The notes beneath the pieces were generated by a model, which was given only the letters and a program-made list of their open reading frames with translations, ran no database searches and was not told the origin of the DNA. Source: a virus. Taken from it: a stretch of 61,473 bases of DNA. The translations under genes were made by a program, and so were the position numbers. The stretch lies in IMG/VR virus record IMGVR_UViG_3300035534_000060; one strand, written 5' to 3'. Of the stretch, positions 2,220 through 55,523 are shown piece after piece. Positions within the stretch are counted from its first letter, which is position 1. Each line of letters opens with the position of its first letter.

Positions 2220-2786
2220 ATGGGCTATAAACGTACCCGTGATGATTTTATCGCAGAATTGGACATTATACATAACCAAAGAAGGCATGAAGTGCCGCCC
2301 CTTAGATTTGTAGAGGGTAATGAAGGGCTCGATGTAGAAATTCTTAGGAATGATATATGGAATGCATGGCTTGAAAAAATTCCGGTGAGGCAAATTGCTA
2401 ATGCAGCAGAAGTAGAACCATCCACAGTAAATAGGCATCTTAATAAATGTAAGAAGATGTATGATAAATGGGTCACTGAAAATGGGCTTGATCTTCATGG
2501 CGACCCTGCAAATAGGCTTGAGGATGCCATATCAGACATTCAGAAAGAGATGGATGAATTGGAAGAGCAAGCACAGGAATGTAAAGCAGAAGGCGATGTC
2601 CGAGGCTACAAGGAATTAAAAAAACTTAAACATGAATTGCGTAAGGAAATGACCAAGTTTATGGGTGTAGAACCTGAGAAGAAACTTAATGTAGAAGTCA
2701 CTAGTGCCGAGGAAACCAGAAGGAAGATGGCTGAATTATTCCCATCGGATGAAGTAATTGACCCGGAGGAAGAAGATGAGGGCTAA
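2220..2786 (+). CDS. Putative HTH DNA-binding protein with acidic coiled-coil C-terminus
   Basis: VRQIANAAEVEPSTVNRHLNK helix-turn-helix-like segment; charged heptad-like C-terminal half. Confidence 0.45.
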   Translation: MGYKRTRDDFIAELDIIHNQRRHEVPPLRFVEGNEGLDVEILRNDIWNAWLEKIPVRQIANAAEVEPSTVNRHLNKCKKMYDKWVTENGLDLHGDPANRLEDAISDIQKEMDELEEQAQECKAEGDVRGYKELKKLKHELRKEMTKFMGVEPEKKLNVEVTSAEETRRKMAELFPSDEVIDPEEEDEG

Positions 2787-2823
2787 ACGTAGAGGTGGCC
2801 CTTAATTTTTTTTACCCTAATTC

Positions 2824-2843
2824 AAAATAGAAACGTATATATA
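2824..2843 (+). promoter_or_regulatory. Archaeal BRE/TATA promoter (AAAATAGAAACGTATATATA)
   Basis: Second copy of the T-tract/promoter/leader cassette, ending in AATAAGGAGGAATATT-ATG at 2879. Confidence 0.5.
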
Positions 2844-3065
2844 AGATGCCTGCATAGTAGGTGTATCGAATAAATAAGGAGGAATATTATGATAGGAAGA
2901 AAAATAAGAATAGTATTGGTTCACATTAGAATGGCATTACACCCAAGTTGGGTGAGTTATGGTATTGAAGATGTCGCATATATTGAAGGTTATGTAACAT
3001 TCTTGCAATGGCTGGGTTTGAGGTGATTATGTGAGGATGTGGAATATTAATCGGAGGGAGATTAA

Positions 3066-3308
3066 ATGAATAAGAAAAATGTAATTATGGATTCAATACC
3101 ATTGGAGTTTATTAAGGATTTTAATTTCCTTACTCCGACACAAGCAATAATCGTATACTTGCATGATGAGCAGGATCTAGATTTTAATGATATTGCAAGT
3201 GTGCTAGGTAGGTATGGTCATAATATAAGAGCACAATATGATATAGCATCGGATAAGATCGATAGTCAGTTTAAAGAATTAGTTAAGGAATTAGAAGGTA
3301 AAGTGTAA
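3066..3308 (+). CDS. Small HTH protein (sigma-70 region-4-like)
   Basis: GGAGGGAG SD; LTPTQAIIVYLHDEQDLDFNDIASVLG resembles region-4 HTH. Confidence 0.4.
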   Translation: MNKKNVIMDSIPLEFIKDFNFLTPTQAIIVYLHDEQDLDFNDIASVLGRYGHNIRAQYDIASDKIDSQFKELVKELEGKV

Positions 3309-3812: not shown

Positions 3813-4925
3813 ATGTTAAAGGCTTACAAGTATAGAATGTATCCTGATGAAAAACAAATTGAAATGTTCCATAAACATTTTGGGGCATGTAGATACATCT
3901 ATAATTGGGCGTTGGAAAATAAAATTAAATCTTATGAACAAGAAGGCAAATCGATTTCAAGATTTGAATTAAATGGGAAAATTCGGATGTTGAAAATGGA
4001 GTTCGAATGGTTGAAAGAAATTAATTCTCAATCATTGCAAGGTGCTACTCTTAATCTGGATAATGCTTTTACCAAGTTTTTCCGTGAGAAAAAGGGTTTT
4101 CCTAAATTTAAATCAAAGAAAAATCCGGTACAATCATTTTCTGTTCCACAACATTATGAGGTGGATTTTGATGGTAACAAAGTGAAACTTCCCAAAATTG
4201 GTTGGATTAAGACAAAGTTACATAGACGTTTTGAAGGTAATTTGAAAACTGCAACAATATCAAAAACACCATCTGGTAAATATTTCATTAGTATTCTTGT
4301 AGATGACGAAAAAGATTTGCCTGCCAAACAAAAGTTTAATGAAAACAATACGGTTGGTATTGATGTGGGAATTAAGGATTTTGCCATTACTTCTAATGGT
4401 GAAAAAATAGATAATCCCAAGCATCTTAATAATTCAATAAAACGTTTGAAAGTATTGCAAAAGCGTCTCTCACGAAAACAAAAAGGTTCAAAAAACAGAG
4501 AAAAAGCAAGACAGGAGATAGCAAAACTTCATGAGAAAATCGCAAATCAGAGAAATGATTTCCAGCACAAGTTGACAAGTCGACTCATAAGCGAAAACCA
4601 AGCGATTGCACTGGAAACATTAAACATATCTGGAATGTTGAAAAATCATTGTCTTGCACAATCCATTAATGATGTATCATGGAGTTCTTTTGTAACCAAA
4701 TTGGAATATAAAGCAGAATGGTACGGAAAAACAATTCTCCGTATCGGACAGTTCGAGCCATCTACTAAAATATGCAATATCTGTGGGTATCATAACAAAA
4801 AGATTACACTTGCAGACCGTAAATGGCAATGTCCTGATTGTGGTGAAACTCATGACAGAGATGTCAATGCTGCAATTAACATTAAGAAGTTTGCCTTAAA
4901 TAAACAGAATTTGATAGGTATTTGA
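3813..4925 (+). CDS. tnpB: TnpB (OrfB) RNA-guided endonuclease-like protein
   Basis: N-terminal LKAYKYRMYPDEKQ; RuvC-like GIDVGIKD, ALETLN, HDRDVNAA; zinc finger CNICGYH...CPDCGETH. Confidence 0.85.
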   Translation: MLKAYKYRMYPDEKQIEMFHKHFGACRYIYNWALENKIKSYEQEGKSISRFELNGKIRMLKMEFEWLKEINSQSLQGATLNLDNAFTKFFREKKGFPKFKSKKNPVQSFSVPQHYEVDFDGNKVKLPKIGWIKTKLHRRFEGNLKTATISKTPSGKYFISILVDDEKDLPAKQKFNENNTVGIDVGIKDFAITSNGEKIDNPKHLNNSIKRLKVLQKRLSRKQKGSKNREKARQEIAKLHEKIANQRNDFQHKLTSRLISENQAIALETLNISGMLKNHCLAQSINDVSWSSFVTKLEYKAEWYGKTILRIGQFEPSTKICNICGYHNKKITLADRKWQCPDCGETHDRDVNAAINIKKFALNKQNLIGI

Positions 4926-12035: not shown

Positions 12036-12292
12036 AATCCCGCCTCCTCTAAAATATCAGCGAGGTCTTCTATTGTCATAATACCTGTACTACATCTCCA
12101 TATAGGAATGCTACTCTTAAGTTTAAGAGCATCGAAACATTTATCGGACTCAATCATGAGAAACTTTTTTCTCTCCCTACCTTCCATAATCTTATCATTG
12201 AGCGCATTCAATATATCTATTTCAGTATCAGTGAGCGATTCTCTAATTTCATCTCTGTCCAGAACCATATATTTATTCCTCATATTCAACAC
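12032..12292 (-). CDS. Hypothetical protein (minus-strand island)
   Basis: 86-aa ORF chained by overlaps to its neighbours. Confidence 0.4.
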   Translation of the reverse strand: MLNMRNKYMVLDRDEIRESLTDTEIDILNALNDKIMEGRERKKFLMIESDKCFDALKLKSSIPIWRCSTGIMTIEDLADILEEAGL

Positions 12293-12651
12293 TCCTTTTC
12301 TTCAAATTCAACGCCAAATGTGGGCAGCAATTCGCTCATAGACATGTCAATATGCCTATGTTGATCTCTCATATCGTCCAAATTCTTAGCATTCGTCCAC
12401 TCAATCACCTTCTCAATGGCATCCTGCAAATCTTTCAGAACCACATGCGGCTCATCCATATACCCAGCCCGCACAGAAATATCATACACGCCATTCGAAG
12501 TACACAATATCAGCGATCTATACCAACTTTCAAAAGATTCTTCAAATGCCCCATCTTGTTCAACCAGCCGGGCATCCCTTATCAGCACATATGGGCAGCA
12601 AAACCGCCCATTCTCTTCATCATAGCCACACTTATAATATTCTATTTTCAT
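12286..12651 (-). CDS. Hypothetical Cys-containing protein (minus-strand island)
   Basis: 121-aa ORF; N-terminal CGYDEENGRFCC. Confidence 0.4.
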   Translation of the reverse strand: MKIEYYKCGYDEENGRFCCPYVLIRDARLVEQDGAFEESFESWYRSLILCTSNGVYDISVRAGYMDEPHVVLKDLQDAIEKVIEWTNAKNLDDMRDQHRHIDMSMSELLPTFGVEFEEKEC

Positions 12652-12663
12652 TCTGTCAACACC

Positions 12664-13260
12664 TCACATTACCGCCATAAGATAACCCAAACCAGCACCA
12701 CATAAGAAGAATACAATCATAACCAATATGACCATTCTATTATCTTCACACTCATCGAGTTGTATCCTAAATTCACGATTCGCATCCTTTAGGCGGCTAA
12801 TTTCATTCTCATATGATTCTTTCTTATAGTCACAAAAGACCAATTCTCTCCTAAGACGATTATTAATATCCCGCTCTTTGTGCAAATCGTGCATCAACTT
12901 GTTATCACTCTGCTTTTCCTTCTCAATAGTTTCCCGCATAGTGCATTCAATGCCATGTACCTTATTCTCAAGTTCTTCAATCCGATCTTTTTTATTTTCA
13001 GCAGTGAAGTTTTTATACAAATCTTCCATTGCTTCATCTATAGTATCTCCAAATCCAGCCACAGACTCTTGCAGATTTTTGAAATCTGGCAACTTCACAC
13101 AAAAACTGTCACCATCTTTTTCAAGTTTCACATTTTTAAATCCATACTTTTCAACAAGGTCATCATCCAGTTCTATTATACCACAAACTATTCTCTCTAT
13201 CATATTATCCTCTCGATTAAATTTATCCAGTAAATCTTCCAATGCTTCCACCCTCCTCAT
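12664..13260 (-). CDS. HicB/UPF0150-like domain protein with coiled coil and C-terminal transmembrane anchor
   Basis: LEKDGDSFCVKLPDF...GDTIDEAMEDL resembles the HicB antitoxin fold motif; C-terminal MVILVMIVFFLCGAGLGYLMAVM. Confidence 0.4.
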   Translation of the reverse strand: MRRVEALEDLLDKFNREDNMIERIVCGIIELDDDLVEKYGFKNVKLEKDGDSFCVKLPDFKNLQESVAGFGDTIDEAMEDLYKNFTAENKKDRIEELENKVHGIECTMRETIEKEKQSDNKLMHDLHKERDINNRLRRELVFCDYKKESYENEISRLKDANREFRIQLDECEDNRMVILVMIVFFLCGAGLGYLMAVM

Positions 13261-13404
13261 TTACTTATCCCAGACTTCTTAATCAGCCTATTCTTTAGGC
13301 GTTTTTCTTTACCTCGTTGTTCAGATTCTTTCAACATTTTACCTACATTCATAGTATTTACCTCCTACTCTGAATAGGAGGCAAACCTATATAAATCTGC
13401 TGGT

Positions 13405-14133
13405 TTAAATTTTTAATTTGTCCACAGCAATCTCATATGGCACTTTAAAACTATGTGCGCTCCATGTATATTCACCATCATCACATTCAAAAACAAGGTA
13501 GCCGCAGTCATTTCCATAGGTGACTTTGCCTTTCCTCATAAATCCATCTTTCCATTTCCATGCAGGCGCAATAACACCAAGCATATCTTCCCAGCCAATG
13601 AAATGCAAATAATGTGCGTGACCCCTCAGAGCAACATCTACATTACCATATGTTTCAGGATACATCTTCATGGCCTCAAGATCGCCATTCAGACTCGTTC
13701 CACGGCCTTTCAGCGTTGAACTAGTGCCCACAGCATGCTTCAAATGGAAATCTACACCATCGACCTCAACATGTTTATCAATGTCAAATGTACCGCCGAT
13801 TAAATCCATAACATTTCTATCGGCACTACCATTTGACCCAACATGATAATCAGAACCTTGAACACCAACAAACACATCAGCATCAATCATGCGCAACATA
13901 CCCGCAGCATGCTCTATTTGCAAATCAATATCATTAGTCCAATTGCCAACTCCATCAGATTTTTTATTCTTACCATTAACTGAATCGCCAAGAACAAAAA
14001 CCACATCATAATGCTCGTTACACATATTACGCCATTGTTCCCAGAACATTTTCTGCACTTTATTTTGTCCAACAGCGCAACCATACATATTAGCCCAACT
14101 CGGCATGACAGATGCCATGCAGCCAACATGCAT
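13405..14133 (-). CDS. Calcineurin-like metallophosphoesterase (start uncertain)
   Basis: Motifs SDMHVG (read through the annotated Met), VFVLGDSVNG, RGHAHY; no canonical start between the upstream stop and the ATG. Confidence 0.55.
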   Translation of the reverse strand: MHVGCMASVMPSWANMYGCAVGQNKVQKMFWEQWRNMCNEHYDVVFVLGDSVNGKNKKSDGVGNWTNDIDLQIEHAAGMLRMIDADVFVGVQGSDYHVGSNGSADRNVMDLIGGTFDIDKHVEVDGVDFHLKHAVGTSSTLKGRGTSLNGDLEAMKMYPETYGNVDVALRGHAHYLHFIGWEDMLGVIAPAWKWKDGFMRKGKVTYGNDCGYLVFECDDGEYTWSAHSFKVPYEIAVDKLKI

Positions 14134-17789: not shown

Positions 17790-19292
17790 ATGAATTTAGA
17801 TCAGATAAATGAATATATGGAGGAGCAAGATTATGACAAACGCCAAAGAAATTATGTCAACTTGCTCTGTAATACTTTTAACATGAAAAATGCTAAAGGT
17901 GAATTATTTCCTTATAGGCCTGAAAAATATCAAATAAATTATCACGCTCATTGTATGCTTGCCATGAAAGACTATCCTCACCGTATTTGGCGTAAAGCAA
18001 GGGGTGTCGGGGCAACTGCTACTACAATGATGGATGCTTTGATGGTTTCACACAGATTCAGAAAACAAACAATACCAGTAGCATCTATAACAGGCGAACA
18101 GGCATCTGTACCAATAGATTGGTCAATTGAATTGGCTGATAATACACAAATAGACGGCTTTTTTAATAGGCGGCAAGATGTGACTACTCGATGTGTATTA
18201 GATAATGGAAGTACAATTTTTGTAGTTCCGGGGCAAAAACCTGACTCTTTACGTAGTTACCGTTCTGTATTTGTTGTATATGATGAATTTGCTTTCCATG
18301 AATATCCACGCAAAATAAAGATTGCTGGTGATAGATGTGTTTCTGAAGGCGGCCAATTAAATATTCTTTCAACTGTTAATGGTACAGAAAACGAGTTTTG
18401 GAGACTTCTTGAAAATGCTGAAGATTTTGGTTATAAGGAATTTTCAGTACCTATGTTTGATCCAGAAAAGTTTGATATAAAGAAGCCTATACCGTATCAA
18501 ATTGAGCAAGGTTGGATTAAACCTATCGCCCCATGGATGAATATAGATATGCTTGAACGGGATAGAAAGAGTGACCCGATAGCGTTTATGCAAGAAACCC
18601 AATGTAATCCAGAAGACGGCGCTACATCATTCATGCCTACTGCACTTCTTTACAGAGCATCTAGAGAGCCATATATGATAGAGCAGGATGCCAGAGAAGG
18701 ATTCGGCATATATGTATGTGGTATTGACTTTGCTACTGAAAAAGATATGTCTGCATTTGAAATTTTTGAAAAAGTGCCACAAGGTTGGATACATCGCAAA
18801 AGAGTTGCTGTACAAAAGCATGATACGCCTCAGCAAGTTCAACTATTAAAAAGTTTGCATAGAGCATTTAATTTCAAATATGTGACTATAGATATGACAG
18901 GCCCGGGTACAGGATTTTACCATTATGCTAAAGAGCAGCTGCAAACTGAAGTGATTGGAATAAATTTCTCTACAAGGCACATCATTGAACCAGATAATCA
19001 ATATTTATATAGAAAAGCAGATAAAAATGTTAGAAAGGATGGAAAAATTTCCATACCAATTAAAAGAGCAATGGCTACTCATATGAAGAAAGAGGCTGAT
19101 GAAGGTCGATTGCTATTTCTTAATTATCCAGAATATATTAAAGATTTGCATTCAGTACCATATGATTCGCTTGATGCAAAGCGCAATAAAAATCATCATG
19201 GTGATGAGTTCTGGGGCAGCGCATTGGCATTATGGGGATACCAGATGCATGAGAATAGAATATCCATACCGCCAGTTTCATTGAGGTATTAA
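17790..19292 (+). CDS. Terminase large subunit (putative)
   Basis: 500 aa directly upstream of portal-sized gene; RGVGATAT P-loop-like, VFVVYDEFAF Walker-B-like, acidic C-terminal nuclease-like half. Confidence 0.6.
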   Translation: MNLDQINEYMEEQDYDKRQRNYVNLLCNTFNMKNAKGELFPYRPEKYQINYHAHCMLAMKDYPHRIWRKARGVGATATTMMDALMVSHRFRKQTIPVASITGEQASVPIDWSIELADNTQIDGFFNRRQDVTTRCVLDNGSTIFVVPGQKPDSLRSYRSVFVVYDEFAFHEYPRKIKIAGDRCVSEGGQLNILSTVNGTENEFWRLLENAEDFGYKEFSVPMFDPEKFDIKKPIPYQIEQGWIKPIAPWMNIDMLERDRKSDPIAFMQETQCNPEDGATSFMPTALLYRASREPYMIEQDAREGFGIYVCGIDFATEKDMSAFEIFEKVPQGWIHRKRVAVQKHDTPQQVQLLKSLHRAFNFKYVTIDMTGPGTGFYHYAKEQLQTEVIGINFSTRHIIEPDNQYLYRKADKNVRKDGKISIPIKRAMATHMKKEADEGRLLFLNYPEYIKDLHSVPYDSLDAKRNKNHHGDEFWGSALALWGYQMHENRISIPPVSLRY

Positions 19293-53639: not shown

Positions 53640-55523
53640 ATGGATACTAAAACGCAGAAAATTTTGGATGAGGCTAAAGTTCTTATCCTAGACATTGAGG
53701 CAACCAGTCTTGATATAGATACAGCAGTTACTCGTGTGGTTGGTGTAAAGACTAATCAGAGTTCTAAAATTCATTGTATATGGGCAAAGGATTTTGATAA
53801 ACTTAGAAAAGCGATTAAGAAATCAGATTTTATTGTCACATATAATGGCAATAATTATGATATTCCAGTATTACTCAATGATTATAATAAATTATTCAAA
53901 TATGAAACATCATTGACTGGTAAACATATAGATTTATATGATGTTGTTACATCAAGAGAGGCAACTTTTGGCACAAATTTCTTGGATGGGTATTCTCTTG
54001 ATGCTGTTTGTAAGACTCTCGGACTTTCGAGAAAAGTTCAGGATTTTGATTATAATCTTCTAAAGAACGAATATGAGGATATGACTCAAGATGAGATTGA
54101 AGAAATTGAGTATTATCTAAGGCAGGATATAGAAATCACTAATGAACTGTATGAATTTATTGAAGAAATGTATCAGCCATTGGCATTGTTTTTGCCCAAA
54201 AATGATGTGCGCAAAAAGAATTACATAAAATCTTCTATGGGCGCAATAACATACAAAGTAATTTGCCATATGTCAGGGCTTCAACCTACTTATGATGGCG
54301 CATATGTCGATGATGGGTCAGATACCTACAAAGGCGGCCATGTATTTGAGCCTACAAAGGAAAAAGCCGTAGGTAATATTAAATGTGTAGATTATACATC
54401 TGCATATCCTCATGCGTATATGCAGGCTAATCTGTACACTAAATGTAAGCACTGTACTGAAGGAGAATGCCAATATAGGTACACTGGCGGCACTACACCT
54501 GATGGGCATACATTAGAATTACAGGGCGAGTATTGTACTCGTGGTGGCATGGGTGTACGTGAGAGAGTGATACAAAAATTATTCTTATTAAGATTAGATG
54601 CTAAGAATAAAATTAAATCTTATCAAAAACGTAAGAATAATGGTGAAATTTTATCTGAAGATGAAAAGGAAAATTTAAATTATCTAAATAAATTTCAACA
54701 GGGTCTAAAGATAATTATTAATACAATTTATGGTATTTCAGGGTCGCCCAAATTCTTGCAGACATATGATGCTGATACGGCGGCAGATTGTACAAAAATT
54801 TGTAGATTTAATTTACTTTATCTTCATCATAAATTAATTGAGTTTGAAAATGAACATCTTTATGGAGATACCGATAGTGAGTATATTATATGCCCAGATG
54901 ATCTGACTGATGATGAACTTCAAGAACAATTAAACGAAATTATCACAAATCTCAAAAGTATTTATCCATTTCCTCAAGACACATTTAAGATTGATATTGA
55001 GGATAGCATGAAGTTTATGGGATTTTTTAGTGATGGTCATGGCGAATTTAAGAAGAAGAAATACATCATGGTCATGGATGATGATAAAGTTAAAGTCAAA
55101 GGACTTTCTATAGTGCGCCGAGACAGTTCATTTCTTGCCCGTAAAATATGGAATGAAAATATTAAAGAATATATTAGCACAAATCTGTCTCATAAAATTC
55201 CATTGTCATATATAGATGGTTGGATTTCAGATGCTATTGAAACTGATATTGAAAATGCGGCAATTGAATTTAAAGTTAAGCCATTAGAAATGTATAATAG
55301 TACCACAAGCATACAGTCAAAAATTTCTGAAGAGTTAGGTGAAGGCAAGCACAAACTAATTAAGAATAGACGTGGTATAGGTATAGGCAAAGGTGTGTCA
55401 TATGCTACTCTCGATCAGGCAAAAAATTTCACTATTGCTGATATTGATTTGAGTAGAGTTTACTCAGATTTATCTGATGTAACTGATGACGCACAGAAAA
55501 CATTTACACGATTCATGGTGTAA
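53640..55523 (+). CDS. Family B DNA polymerase with 3'-5' exonuclease domain
   Basis: Exo I LILDIEA, Exo II YNGNNYDIPVL, Exo III YYLRQD; motif A VDYTSAYP, B KIIINTIYG, C YGDTDS. Confidence 0.8.
   Translation: MDTKTQKILDEAKVLILDIEATSLDIDTAVTRVVGVKTNQSSKIHCIWAKDFDKLRKAIKKSDFIVTYNGNNYDIPVLLNDYNKLFKYETSLTGKHIDLYDVVTSREATFGTNFLDGYSLDAVCKTLGLSRKVQDFDYNLLKNEYEDMTQDEIEEIEYYLRQDIEITNELYEFIEEMYQPLALFLPKNDVRKKNYIKSSMGAITYKVICHMSGLQPTYDGAYVDDGSDTYKGGHVFEPTKEKAVGNIKCVDYTSAYPHAYMQANLYTKCKHCTEGECQYRYTGGTTPDGHTLELQGEYCTRGGMGVRERVIQKLFLLRLDAKNKIKSYQKRKNNGEILSEDEKENLNYLNKFQQGLKIIINTIYGISGSPKFLQTYDADTAADCTKICRFNLLYLHHKLIEFENEHLYGDTDSEYIICPDDLTDDELQEQLNEIITNLKSIYPFPQDTFKIDIEDSMKFMGFFSDGHGEFKKKKYIMVMDDDKVKVKGLSIVRRDSSFLARKIWNENIKEYISTNLSHKIPLSYIDGWISDAIETDIENAAIEFKVKPLEMYNSTTSIQSKISEELGEGKHKLIKNRRGIGIGKGVSYATLDQAKNFTIADIDLSRVYSDLSDVTDDAQKTFTRFMV

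Follow-up and report, generated by a model that had tools for sequence, protein, structure and literature searches.

A 198-residue protein encoded by an archaeal-type tailed virus raises the question of what a small domain reminiscent of the HicB/UPF0150 antitoxin fold would do in front of a long coiled coil and a hydrophobic C-terminal tail. Is the protein an antitoxin, and if not, what kind of protein is it? We analysed the whole 61,473-nucleotide stretch of viral DNA that carries the gene (referred to as the window), the protein itself, its close relatives and the family to which its N-terminal domain belongs.

The ORF and its surroundings

The main ORF and its neighbours (Table 1) are read from the minus strand. 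GC skew is −0.27 at 12–15 kb as compared with +0.03 to +0.29 in the plus-strand-coding stretches. As it is negative only at minus-strand genes, the minus strand is the coding one here and the overlapping plus-strand ORFs are not genes. The ATG of the main ORF overlaps the stop codon (TGA) of a 31-codon ORF as ATGA, suggesting that the two are translationally coupled. Pfam and PHROG scans gave no match for the 31-residue product, in line with an earlier sequence-only reading in which it had been judged not to be HicA-like. Five other neighbouring ORFs were also without Pfam match. A TATA-like box upstream of the 31-codon ORF is a candidate promoter for a small operon that includes this ORF and the main gene. 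It stays a candidate only, because the motif is not significantly enriched across the window (18 seen versus 12.4 expected); with these counts, TATA-box enrichment was dropped as additional support for an archaeal host.

The main gene is part of a divergently oriented cluster of small genes and does not adjoin the tail region or any putative lysis region. The DNA of the region has no match in the phage collection, and a search with the full-length protein revealed only three close homologues (P0001–P0003). Around the homologue of the upstream 242-aa ORF in virus vir555, no equivalent anchored gene was found. Scans of the protein and its neighbours against Pfam, PHROGs, NCBIfam and PADLOC returned sub-threshold noise only (DUF6348, E 6e-4 to 1.4e-3; PtuB, E 1e-3; coiled-coil families). 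The best Pfam match of the protein itself, to DUF6348 (E 1.4e-3), is below threshold.

Table 1. Features of the locus in the window and length forms of the protein in near-identical viruses.
Feature	Position	Strand	Remarks
Downstream co-oriented 121-aa ORF	12286..12651	(-)	Syntenic in all relatives; no family match
Main ORF	12664..13260	(-)	198 aa and stop codon; from N- to C-terminus a lead, the small domain, the coiled coil and the anchor
Predicted transmembrane tail anchor, residues 176–198 (MVILVMIVFFLCGAGLGYLMAVM)	12667..12735	(-)	Ends at the stop codon
Heptad coiled-coil stalk, residues 89–175	12736..12996	(-)	About 87 residues, unbroken
Predicted beta-beta-beta-alpha domain, residues 42–88	12997..13137	(-)	'DGxWCA-NLQES-AGFGDT' family, remotely HicB-N-like
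N-terminal lead, residues 1–41	13138..13260	(-)	Acidic, variable; start uncertain
Upstream basic ORF, 31 codons (MNVGKMLKESEQRGKEKRLKNRLIKKSGISK)	13257..13352	(-)	Stop overlaps start of main ORF
Candidate archaeal TATA box (box A) TTTATATA	13388..13395	(-)	36 nt before the ATG that starts the 31-aa ORF
Upstream co-oriented 242-aa ORF	13405..14133	(-)	Sole phage-collection homologue in a Methanomicrobiales virus
249 aa form, L001 (P0001)			150-nt indel; 51 more N-terminal residues than in the window
198 aa form, window and L092 (100% identical)			Reference
145 aa form, L095 (P0003)			Clean 150-nt in-frame loss of residues ~125–174, plus 9-nt insertion
101 aa form, L093			In-frame junction between codon 26 (31-aa ORF) and codon 124 (main gene); whole domain gone

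The virus and its probable host

Among the products encoded in the window are TerL, a major capsid and a tape measure protein, PolB and an archaeo-eukaryotic primase, as well as an XPD-like helicase, an RFC-like ATPase, a Holliday-junction resolvase and an RNR. A tRNA scan of the window found none. In the phage collection, TerL is closest to its counterparts in vir521 and vir520, two methanogen viruses with Methanofastidiosa as host, and in about 50 tailed viruses of Halorubrum and Haloarcula, and PolB matches only Halorubrum tailed virus 25. Judged by this gene content, the window belongs to an archaeal tailed virus. An IS200/IS605-type TnpB-like transposase (3813–4925) shares 84–88% protein identity with copies in Methanohalophilus euhalobius and Methanohalophilus sp. 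RSK, and 66–79% with copies in Methanolobus, Methanococcoides and Methanosarcina. Together, the relatives of the viral genes and of the transposase indicate that the host is probably a salt-loving methanogenic archaeon of the Methanosarcinaceae, most likely a Methanohalophilus.

The N-terminal domain and its family

The peptide for which a HicB-like fold had been proposed (EKDGDSFCVKLPDF...GDTIDEAMEDL) corresponds to residues 47–81. A phmmer search with residues 1–94 against 1.84 billion representative proteins gave 146 matches at E ≤ 1e-3, nearly all of which cover residues ~42–88 with 45–66% identity. The family is characterized by the signature [KM]DG[DN]xWCAxxxDFxNLQESxAGFGDTxxEAxxDL, and its near-invariant residues are all present in the query (D49, G50, C54, F60, N62, L63, S66, G69, F70, G71, T73, A77 and L81). 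Against a profile of 59 other members, residues 42–86 score 83.3 bits; since the query was excluded from this profile, its place in the family is secure. Searching 5.8 billion clusters with a profile brought in another 118 members of 38–86 residues (E down to 6e-20), all devoid of Pfam domains and either unnamed or called 'hypothetical', which raises the number of recovered members to more than 240. On these comparisons the family is a distinct one, for which neither Pfam nor NCBIfam has a model and PHROGs has no annotated one. Literature searches on the AGFGDT motif, on Methanohalophilus viruses, on HicB-like anti-defence proteins of phages and on tail-anchored archaeal or viral proteins yielded nothing relevant.

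When AF2 was run on the full-length protein with a 4-sequence alignment, the N-terminal domain was left unfolded (pLDDT <50). Only with an alignment of 75 sequences was a fold modelled, three beta strands followed by a helix. The structure prediction proposed earlier for this domain thus provided a fold and no known relative: Foldseek comparison with PDB and BFVD gave no match at E ≤ 1e-3, the best PDB match having an E of 0.8 and the best BFVD matches being uncharacterised small Caudovirales proteins. The lead in front of the domain is modelled as helix, short strand and helix at low confidence (pLDDT 51–64, residues 1–30). Its true start may be the ATG at 13260, a TTG at codon 7 or an ATG at codon 20, and the relative P0003 was called from codon 7.

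Stand-alone members of the family are 40–90 residues long. In longer ones, the domain is fused at either end to zinc fingers of the DnaJ/anti-TRAP type, to coiled coils or to other regions. In the lambdoid phage CL707 and in Lederbergvirus phiv205-1, it forms the C-terminal part of a 147-aa ORF located directly after N in the pL operon. Paraglaciecola virus JLT2 has a 58-aa member (gp61) near the replicative helicase, Xanthomonas phage JUN5 carries the domain in a 148-aa ORF adjoining recombinase, exonuclease and SSB genes, and the member in Burkholderia phage phiE131 (gp049) is in the early region. Metagenomic members on long contigs are found within arrays of short genes without Pfam matches, as is typical of phage early regions; the neighbours include ParA, methyltransferases, HNH, DUF551 and AAA_24 proteins, and never HicA. 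From this distribution, the domain appears to behave as a portable binding module of early and accessory genes.

Relationship to HicB

An HMM search for HicB/UPF0150 had been suggested as the decisive check of the HicB assignment, and it gave no significant match: the protein does not hit the Pfam models PF15919 and PF15970 even at E ≤ 10, and none of 75 family members matches HicB Pfam models at E ≤ 0.01. Comparison of the single protein with PDB sequences gave nothing meaningful, and the family profile had no match at E ≤ 10 among PDB chains, a library which includes HicB structures. The query scores 8.0 bits with a locally built HicB-N HMM, and the best cross-match between the family and the HicB sets is a HicB protein (P0301) at 13.5 bits.

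A signal that is genuine, though below threshold, was obtained by profile–profile comparison. With hhalign, the family profile aligned to a profile of 27 diverse HicB N-domains from proteins carrying PF15919/PF15970 over 25 columns (score 24.5, P 2.4e-4, probability 43%). The alignment pairs sFCVKLPDF..AGFGDTIDEAMED with gYmVsFPDIPEAlTQGdT.eEAl, that is the stretch from beta2 through the loop to alpha1. In the controls, 200 column shuffles of the HicB alignment scored 8.4 on average (sd 2.4, maximum 15) and the reversed alignment scored 10. The 27-sequence profile is needed, as the comparison with the single E. coli HicB was uninformative (probability 2.4%). Scores about as high as that of HicB were seen for HPF/YfiA, for fragments of YcaO, for many dsRBDs and for Acb4, an anti-CBASS protein. 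Of the HicB resemblance, a faint likeness above the shuffled controls is retained, while the label itself fails for lack of any match to a curated profile. The domain constitutes a separate family, one that is plausibly related at a distance to the N-domain of HicB, and this remote relationship provides a protein-binding precedent for it.

The other attributes of a HicB antitoxin fail as well. Pfam detects no RHH or HTH DNA-binding domain, and residues 89–198 are occupied by the coiled coil and the TM segment. The absence of a HicA partner, already noted from the sequence, is borne out by the lack of Pfam matches among the neighbours and by a phmmer search with E. coli HicA against six-frame fragments of the whole window, in which the best E was 0.7. 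In about 12 contexts of family members, no HicA was annotated or detected by Pfam next to the member. As profile match, DNA-binding domain and HicA partner all fail, the protein is not a HicB antitoxin and not a toxin–antitoxin module.

Coiled-coil stalk and predicted tail anchor

Sequence and AF2 model agree on the proposed order of parts, from the small domain at the N-terminus through a long coiled coil to the anchor at the C-terminus. AF2 predicts a single helix over residues 87–197 (pLDDT 75–87), and the hydrophobic signal at heptad positions a and d has a mean of 0.47 over residues 87–175, compared with 0.27±0.055 after shuffling, and 0 of 500 shuffles reach the observed mean. If fully helical, the stalk would be about 13 nm long. 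The hydrophobic tail described before is evident in 23 residues devoid of charge with a 19-residue Kyte-Doolittle mean of 2.4. A second hydrophobic segment is absent from the protein, and the N-terminus is highly charged, without a signal segment; residues 1–175 contain 46 acidic and 32 basic residues. By its sequence, the protein is predicted to be tail-anchored with its bulk in the cytoplasm. The architecture had been called unusual, and among 247 retrieved proteins a C-terminal TM segment was indeed restricted to the query and its three close relatives. With this restriction to the query lineage, the fusion to a tether could have arisen recently and may be neutral.

In an archaeal host, the anchor becomes a question of how archaea insert tail-anchored proteins, which was still called open in 2017 (PMC5868721). 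Several known types of anchored protein were considered. An archaeosortase substrate of the PGF-CTERM/PEF-CTERM kind was rejected, as PGF/PEF motif, basic tail and signal peptide are absent and NCBIfam CTERM domains gave no match at E ≤ 1. Weak NCBIfam noise matches were to anchored coiled-coil proteins (SH3_and_anchor, LysB/Rz-like), the LysB match having an E of 0.032 and 14.5 bits as compared with a cut-off of 92.75. With this score far below cut-off, a C-terminal TM segment and an archaeal host, which removes spanin-type readings, a spanin was rejected. Pfam models for DUF883/ElaB and SNARE/synaptobrevin had no match at E ≤ 10, and the SNARE reading was rejected in view of the archaeal host, the viral origin and the lack of profile match and supporting motif.

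Length variants in near-identical viruses

In near-identical viruses, the protein occurs in four lengths (Table 1), while the flanking 242-aa and 121-aa genes are conserved. Three independent indels are found among the relatives, two of which are shown to be in frame, and two independent deletions share a junction at codons 124/125 (12886–12891). The anchor is the same in all four forms except for residues 177–178 in P0003. These length variants in otherwise near-identical viruses indicate that the gene is modular and at least partly dispensable, with the anchor as its constant part. The pN/pS ratio is 0.35 versus L095 (15 differences) and about 1.1 versus L001 (9 differences), and substitutions between relatives are too few to demonstrate purifying selection. 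For L093, the comparison is unreliable because of its fused N-terminus.

A proposed tail-anchored adaptor and alternative explanations

We tentatively prefer, at a little short of even chances, the explanation that the protein is a dispensable, cytoplasm-facing, tail-anchored coiled-coil adaptor which captures a partner at the membrane of the host of this archaeal virus. The uncharged C-terminal 23 residues would insert post-translationally into the cytoplasmic membrane of the host, and the entire hydrophilic part would face the cytoplasm. The 87-residue heptad region would form a parallel coiled coil, most likely a dimer, of about 13 nm, with the beta-beta-beta-alpha domain at its tip as a ligand-binding module. 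The small operon would co-express the adaptor and the coupled 31-aa basic peptide. Early in infection a partner, be it a protein of the host or of the virus or a nucleic acid, would be caught or enriched on the inner side of the membrane, where the fusion of the domain to a membrane tether should hold it. From the architecture, the family context and the HicB precedent we infer the topology and the oligomeric state as well as expression early in infection, the binding of a partner and its sequestration at the membrane, and with them the functional steps of the model. L093 argues against the model: it is devoid of the N-terminal domain and keeps half of the stalk and the anchor, so that the anchor region may be the part under selection.

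The same length variants would also suit a protein whose functional core is the anchor with the membrane-proximal coil, acting in holin-like lysis timing, superinfection exclusion or membrane remodelling, and to which the N-terminal domain is a dispensable regulatory appendage. Residues 176–198 are near-constant in all four variants while N-terminus, domain and half of the stalk vary, both internal deletions hold the frame into the anchor, L093 fuses the upstream ORF in frame, and the NCBIfam noise matches are to anchored coiled-coil proteins. To our knowledge, few of the genes by which tailed viruses of archaea bring about lysis and exclusion have been recognised, which makes a yet unrecognised type plausible. 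Typical holins have extracytoplasmic residues, a charged C-terminal tail and a dual-start motif, whereas this protein has a single TM segment without any of these, and a holin was rejected on the position of the TM segment and the missing motifs and profile matches. Moreover, the gene is not next to the tail region or any putative lysis region and is part of the divergent cluster of small genes, PHROG matches to lysis or exclusion proteins are absent, and two or three in-frame events are weak statistics (about 0.04–0.11 under neutrality). We consider a membrane-active core unlikely. It is very improbable that the gene is a decaying or neutral mosaic remnant without a function of its own. Extreme length variation among near-identical genomes, the pN/pS ratio versus L001 and the lack of homologues of the full architecture beyond the query lineage would fit such a remnant. 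Yet all variants are open to the same stop codon, the family signature is intact at 83 bits, the heptad register is unbroken over 87 residues and pN/pS versus L095 is 0.35.

Other explanations differ from the adaptor in what the N-terminal domain would bind. As a dsRBD-like nucleic-acid binder, it could tether viral DNA or RNA, and with it replication or packaging, to the membrane, similar to p16.7 of phi29 with the parts reversed. Nucleic-acid binding is unfavourable because the N-terminal region is strongly acidic (24 Asp/Glu versus 14 Lys/Arg in residues 1–92) and the NLQES-AGFGDT loop is acidic or neutral; the structural scores are all weak, and the 'RNA-binding' label is an untested annotation by the depositor. 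We rate this as rather improbable. The protein could also be a true antitoxin of the HicB type, or an orphan mimic of one, and neutralise a toxin of the HicA type, which would be consistent with the likeness to the HicA-binding HicB N-domain at the levels of motif and fold. HicAB cassettes are common in archaea, and phage antitoxin mimics that defeat host toxins, such as Dmd of T4, are known. This explanation has against it the missing match to a curated HicB profile, the missing RHH/HTH domain and the absence of a HicA-like ORF next to the gene, in the window and beside the family members in about 12 contexts, and we regard it as highly improbable. We very much doubt a more specific reading, by which the domain would be a widespread and as yet unrecognised counter-defence module of tailed viruses that arose from the toxin-binding N-domain of HicB, binds and neutralises a conserved host effector (for instance a HicA-type RNase or another dsRBD-like protein) and is here turned into a membrane-tethered trap which takes the effector out of the cytoplasm.

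Implications

If our assignment is correct, the family represents a conserved domain of ~45 residues carried by hundreds of early tailed-phage genes, among them the ORF that follows N in lambdoid coliphages. Being conserved and yet devoid of a Pfam, NCBIfam or annotated PHROG model, it may be an easily testable candidate for a host-takeover or counter-defence module. Its presence in a methanogen virus would point to exchange of accessory domains, or common ancestry, across viruses of both prokaryotic domains. The protein could also serve as a simple natural substrate for studying the insertion of tail-anchored proteins in archaea, and the four lengths found in nature (249, 198, 145 and 101 aa) form a deletion series that lends itself to structure–function analysis. 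Tail-anchored viral proteins in archaea are, as far as we know, essentially unstudied. Should the counter-defence trap be real, it would be the first sequestration device of the antitoxin-mimic kind to be described from a virus of archaea, based on a domain shared by bacterial and archaeal viruses.

Comparison with known systems

In this archaeal virus, a widespread but unannotated phage domain, weakly linked to HicB-N, occurs in a new architecture; we regard the protein as moderately interesting rather than surprising. Its family membership is seen in the profile score of 83 bits and in 45–66% identity across some 40 residues. All other members are soluble and either consist of the domain by itself or combine it with zinc fingers or other regions, and those identified are from bacterial phages.

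In architecture only, the protein resembles p16.7 of Bacillus phage phi29, which has one TM segment, a dimerising coiled coil and a small terminal cytoplasmic binding domain. p16.7 is an early, non-essential membrane organiser of phage DNA replication. It differs by an N-terminal TM segment, a C-terminal DNA-binding domain of another fold and a bacterial host, and the two proteins are not similar in sequence. A helical or coiled-coil part in the cytoplasm that leads into one C-terminal TM segment is also found in ElaB, YqjD and YgaM of E. coli, which are prokaryotic tail-anchored proteins, and in eukaryotic and Asgard SNARE-type proteins, whose layout of N-domain, heptad motif and tail anchor is the same in outline. 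The i-spanins Rz/LysB of Gram-negative phages likewise combine a single TM segment with a long coiled coil. There, however, the TM segment is N-terminal, the coiled coil is periplasmic, the partner is an o-spanin lipoprotein and the target is the outer membrane, whereas in the protein described here the TM segment is C-terminal, the coil would be cytoplasmic and the archaeal host has no outer membrane.

Another close known system is the N-domain of HicB (PF15919 HicB_lk_antitox/PF15970; structures 6g1c and 6u0i/6hpb, and the related TTHA0281, 2dsy). Compared with it, the loop of the family (NLQES-AGFG) is 3–4 residues longer and highly conserved, and there is a near-invariant Cys. The HicB N-domain has a partial RNase H-like fold of the order beta-beta-beta-alpha-beta, while the family domain as modelled has no strand after the helix. 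Finally, coiled coil and TM segment take up the C-terminus in the query, which is without the RHH/HTH domain and the HicA partner of HicB.

The virus and its probable host

The window as a whole is an archaeal tailed virus. For its TerL, the closest relatives in the phage collection were methanogen (Methanofastidiosa) and haloarchaeal tailed viruses, and the only match to its PolB in that collection was Halorubrum tailed virus 25. At the DNA level, no match to the window was found in the phage collection, and a scan of the window for tRNA genes found none.

The viral genome carries a TnpB-like transposase of the IS200/IS605 type. At the protein level, the multiple copies found in Methanohalophilus euhalobius and Methanohalophilus sp. 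RSK are 84–88% identical to this transposase, as against 66–79% for copies in Methanolobus, Methanococcoides and Methanosarcina. These similarities provide a strong clue to the probable host and are evidence of IS movement between virus and host.

For the primase domain of the 920-residue protein, the best-matching model was PF22548 (E 3e-10), the one for the AEP of the 'TOTE conflict system'. A PHROG domain of unknown function, phrog_30905, is shared by the tail-module protein preceding the tape-measure protein and a 510-residue protein further downstream.

Features of the window and of the compared loci
Feature	Position	Strand	Remark
TnpB-like transposase, IS200/IS605 type	3813-4925	+	within viral genome
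Main gene, codons 124/125	12886-12891		compared locus
Main-gene locus, L093	9959-10264		near-identical virus
Main-gene locus, L095	1107-1544		near-identical virus
Main-gene locus, L001	273-1022		near-identical virus
Candidate box A, TTTATATA	13388-13395	-	perfect methanogen box-A-like match
242-aa ORF	13405-14133	-	neighbour of main ORF
TerL	17790-19292		used for relatedness
Protein of ~955 aa	28355-31219	+	tail module; phrog_30905
Tape-measure protein, ~955 aa	31222-34092	+	tail module; adjoins preceding gene
510-aa protein	36248-37780	+	phrog_30905
920-aa AEP primase protein	39677-42439	-	N-terminal archaeo-eukaryotic primase domain
XPD/Rad3-like helicase	42454-44145	-	next to primase gene
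PolB	53640-55523		used for relatedness
147-aa ORF, phage CL707 (L007)	2782-3225		ends in the domain
147-aa ORF, Escherichia phage phiv205-1 (L008)	2818-3261		ends in the domain

Variation and neighbourhood of the main gene

Across near-identical viruses the main ORF is a hot spot for indels. Two independent deletions have the same junction, ...GATGCACG/ATTTG at codons 124/125: one, in contig L093, joins the upstream 31-residue ORF in frame to the main gene, and the other, in contig L095, removes exactly 150 nt.

Further upstream, the 242-residue ORF had a Methanomicrobiales virus as its sole match in the phage collection and no match in Pfam, PHROG, NCBIfam or the PDB sequences. Its motifs VFVLGDSVNGKN ... 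GHAHYLH are, by eye, reminiscent of calcineurin-like metallophosphoesterases. The candidate box A lies in the 52-nt gap between this gene and the 31-residue ORF; across the window, the motif is statistically not enriched.

The domain in lambdoid coliphages

In lambdoid coliphages, the domain closes an uncharacterized ORF of 147 residues, the one that comes directly after N within the pL operon. The N-terminal half of this ORF contains a second recurrent motif, GWYYLHxNGDLIYK, which is also present in P0138, a metagenomic member of the domain family. The coliphage ORF offers a handy genetic system for finding the function of the domain.
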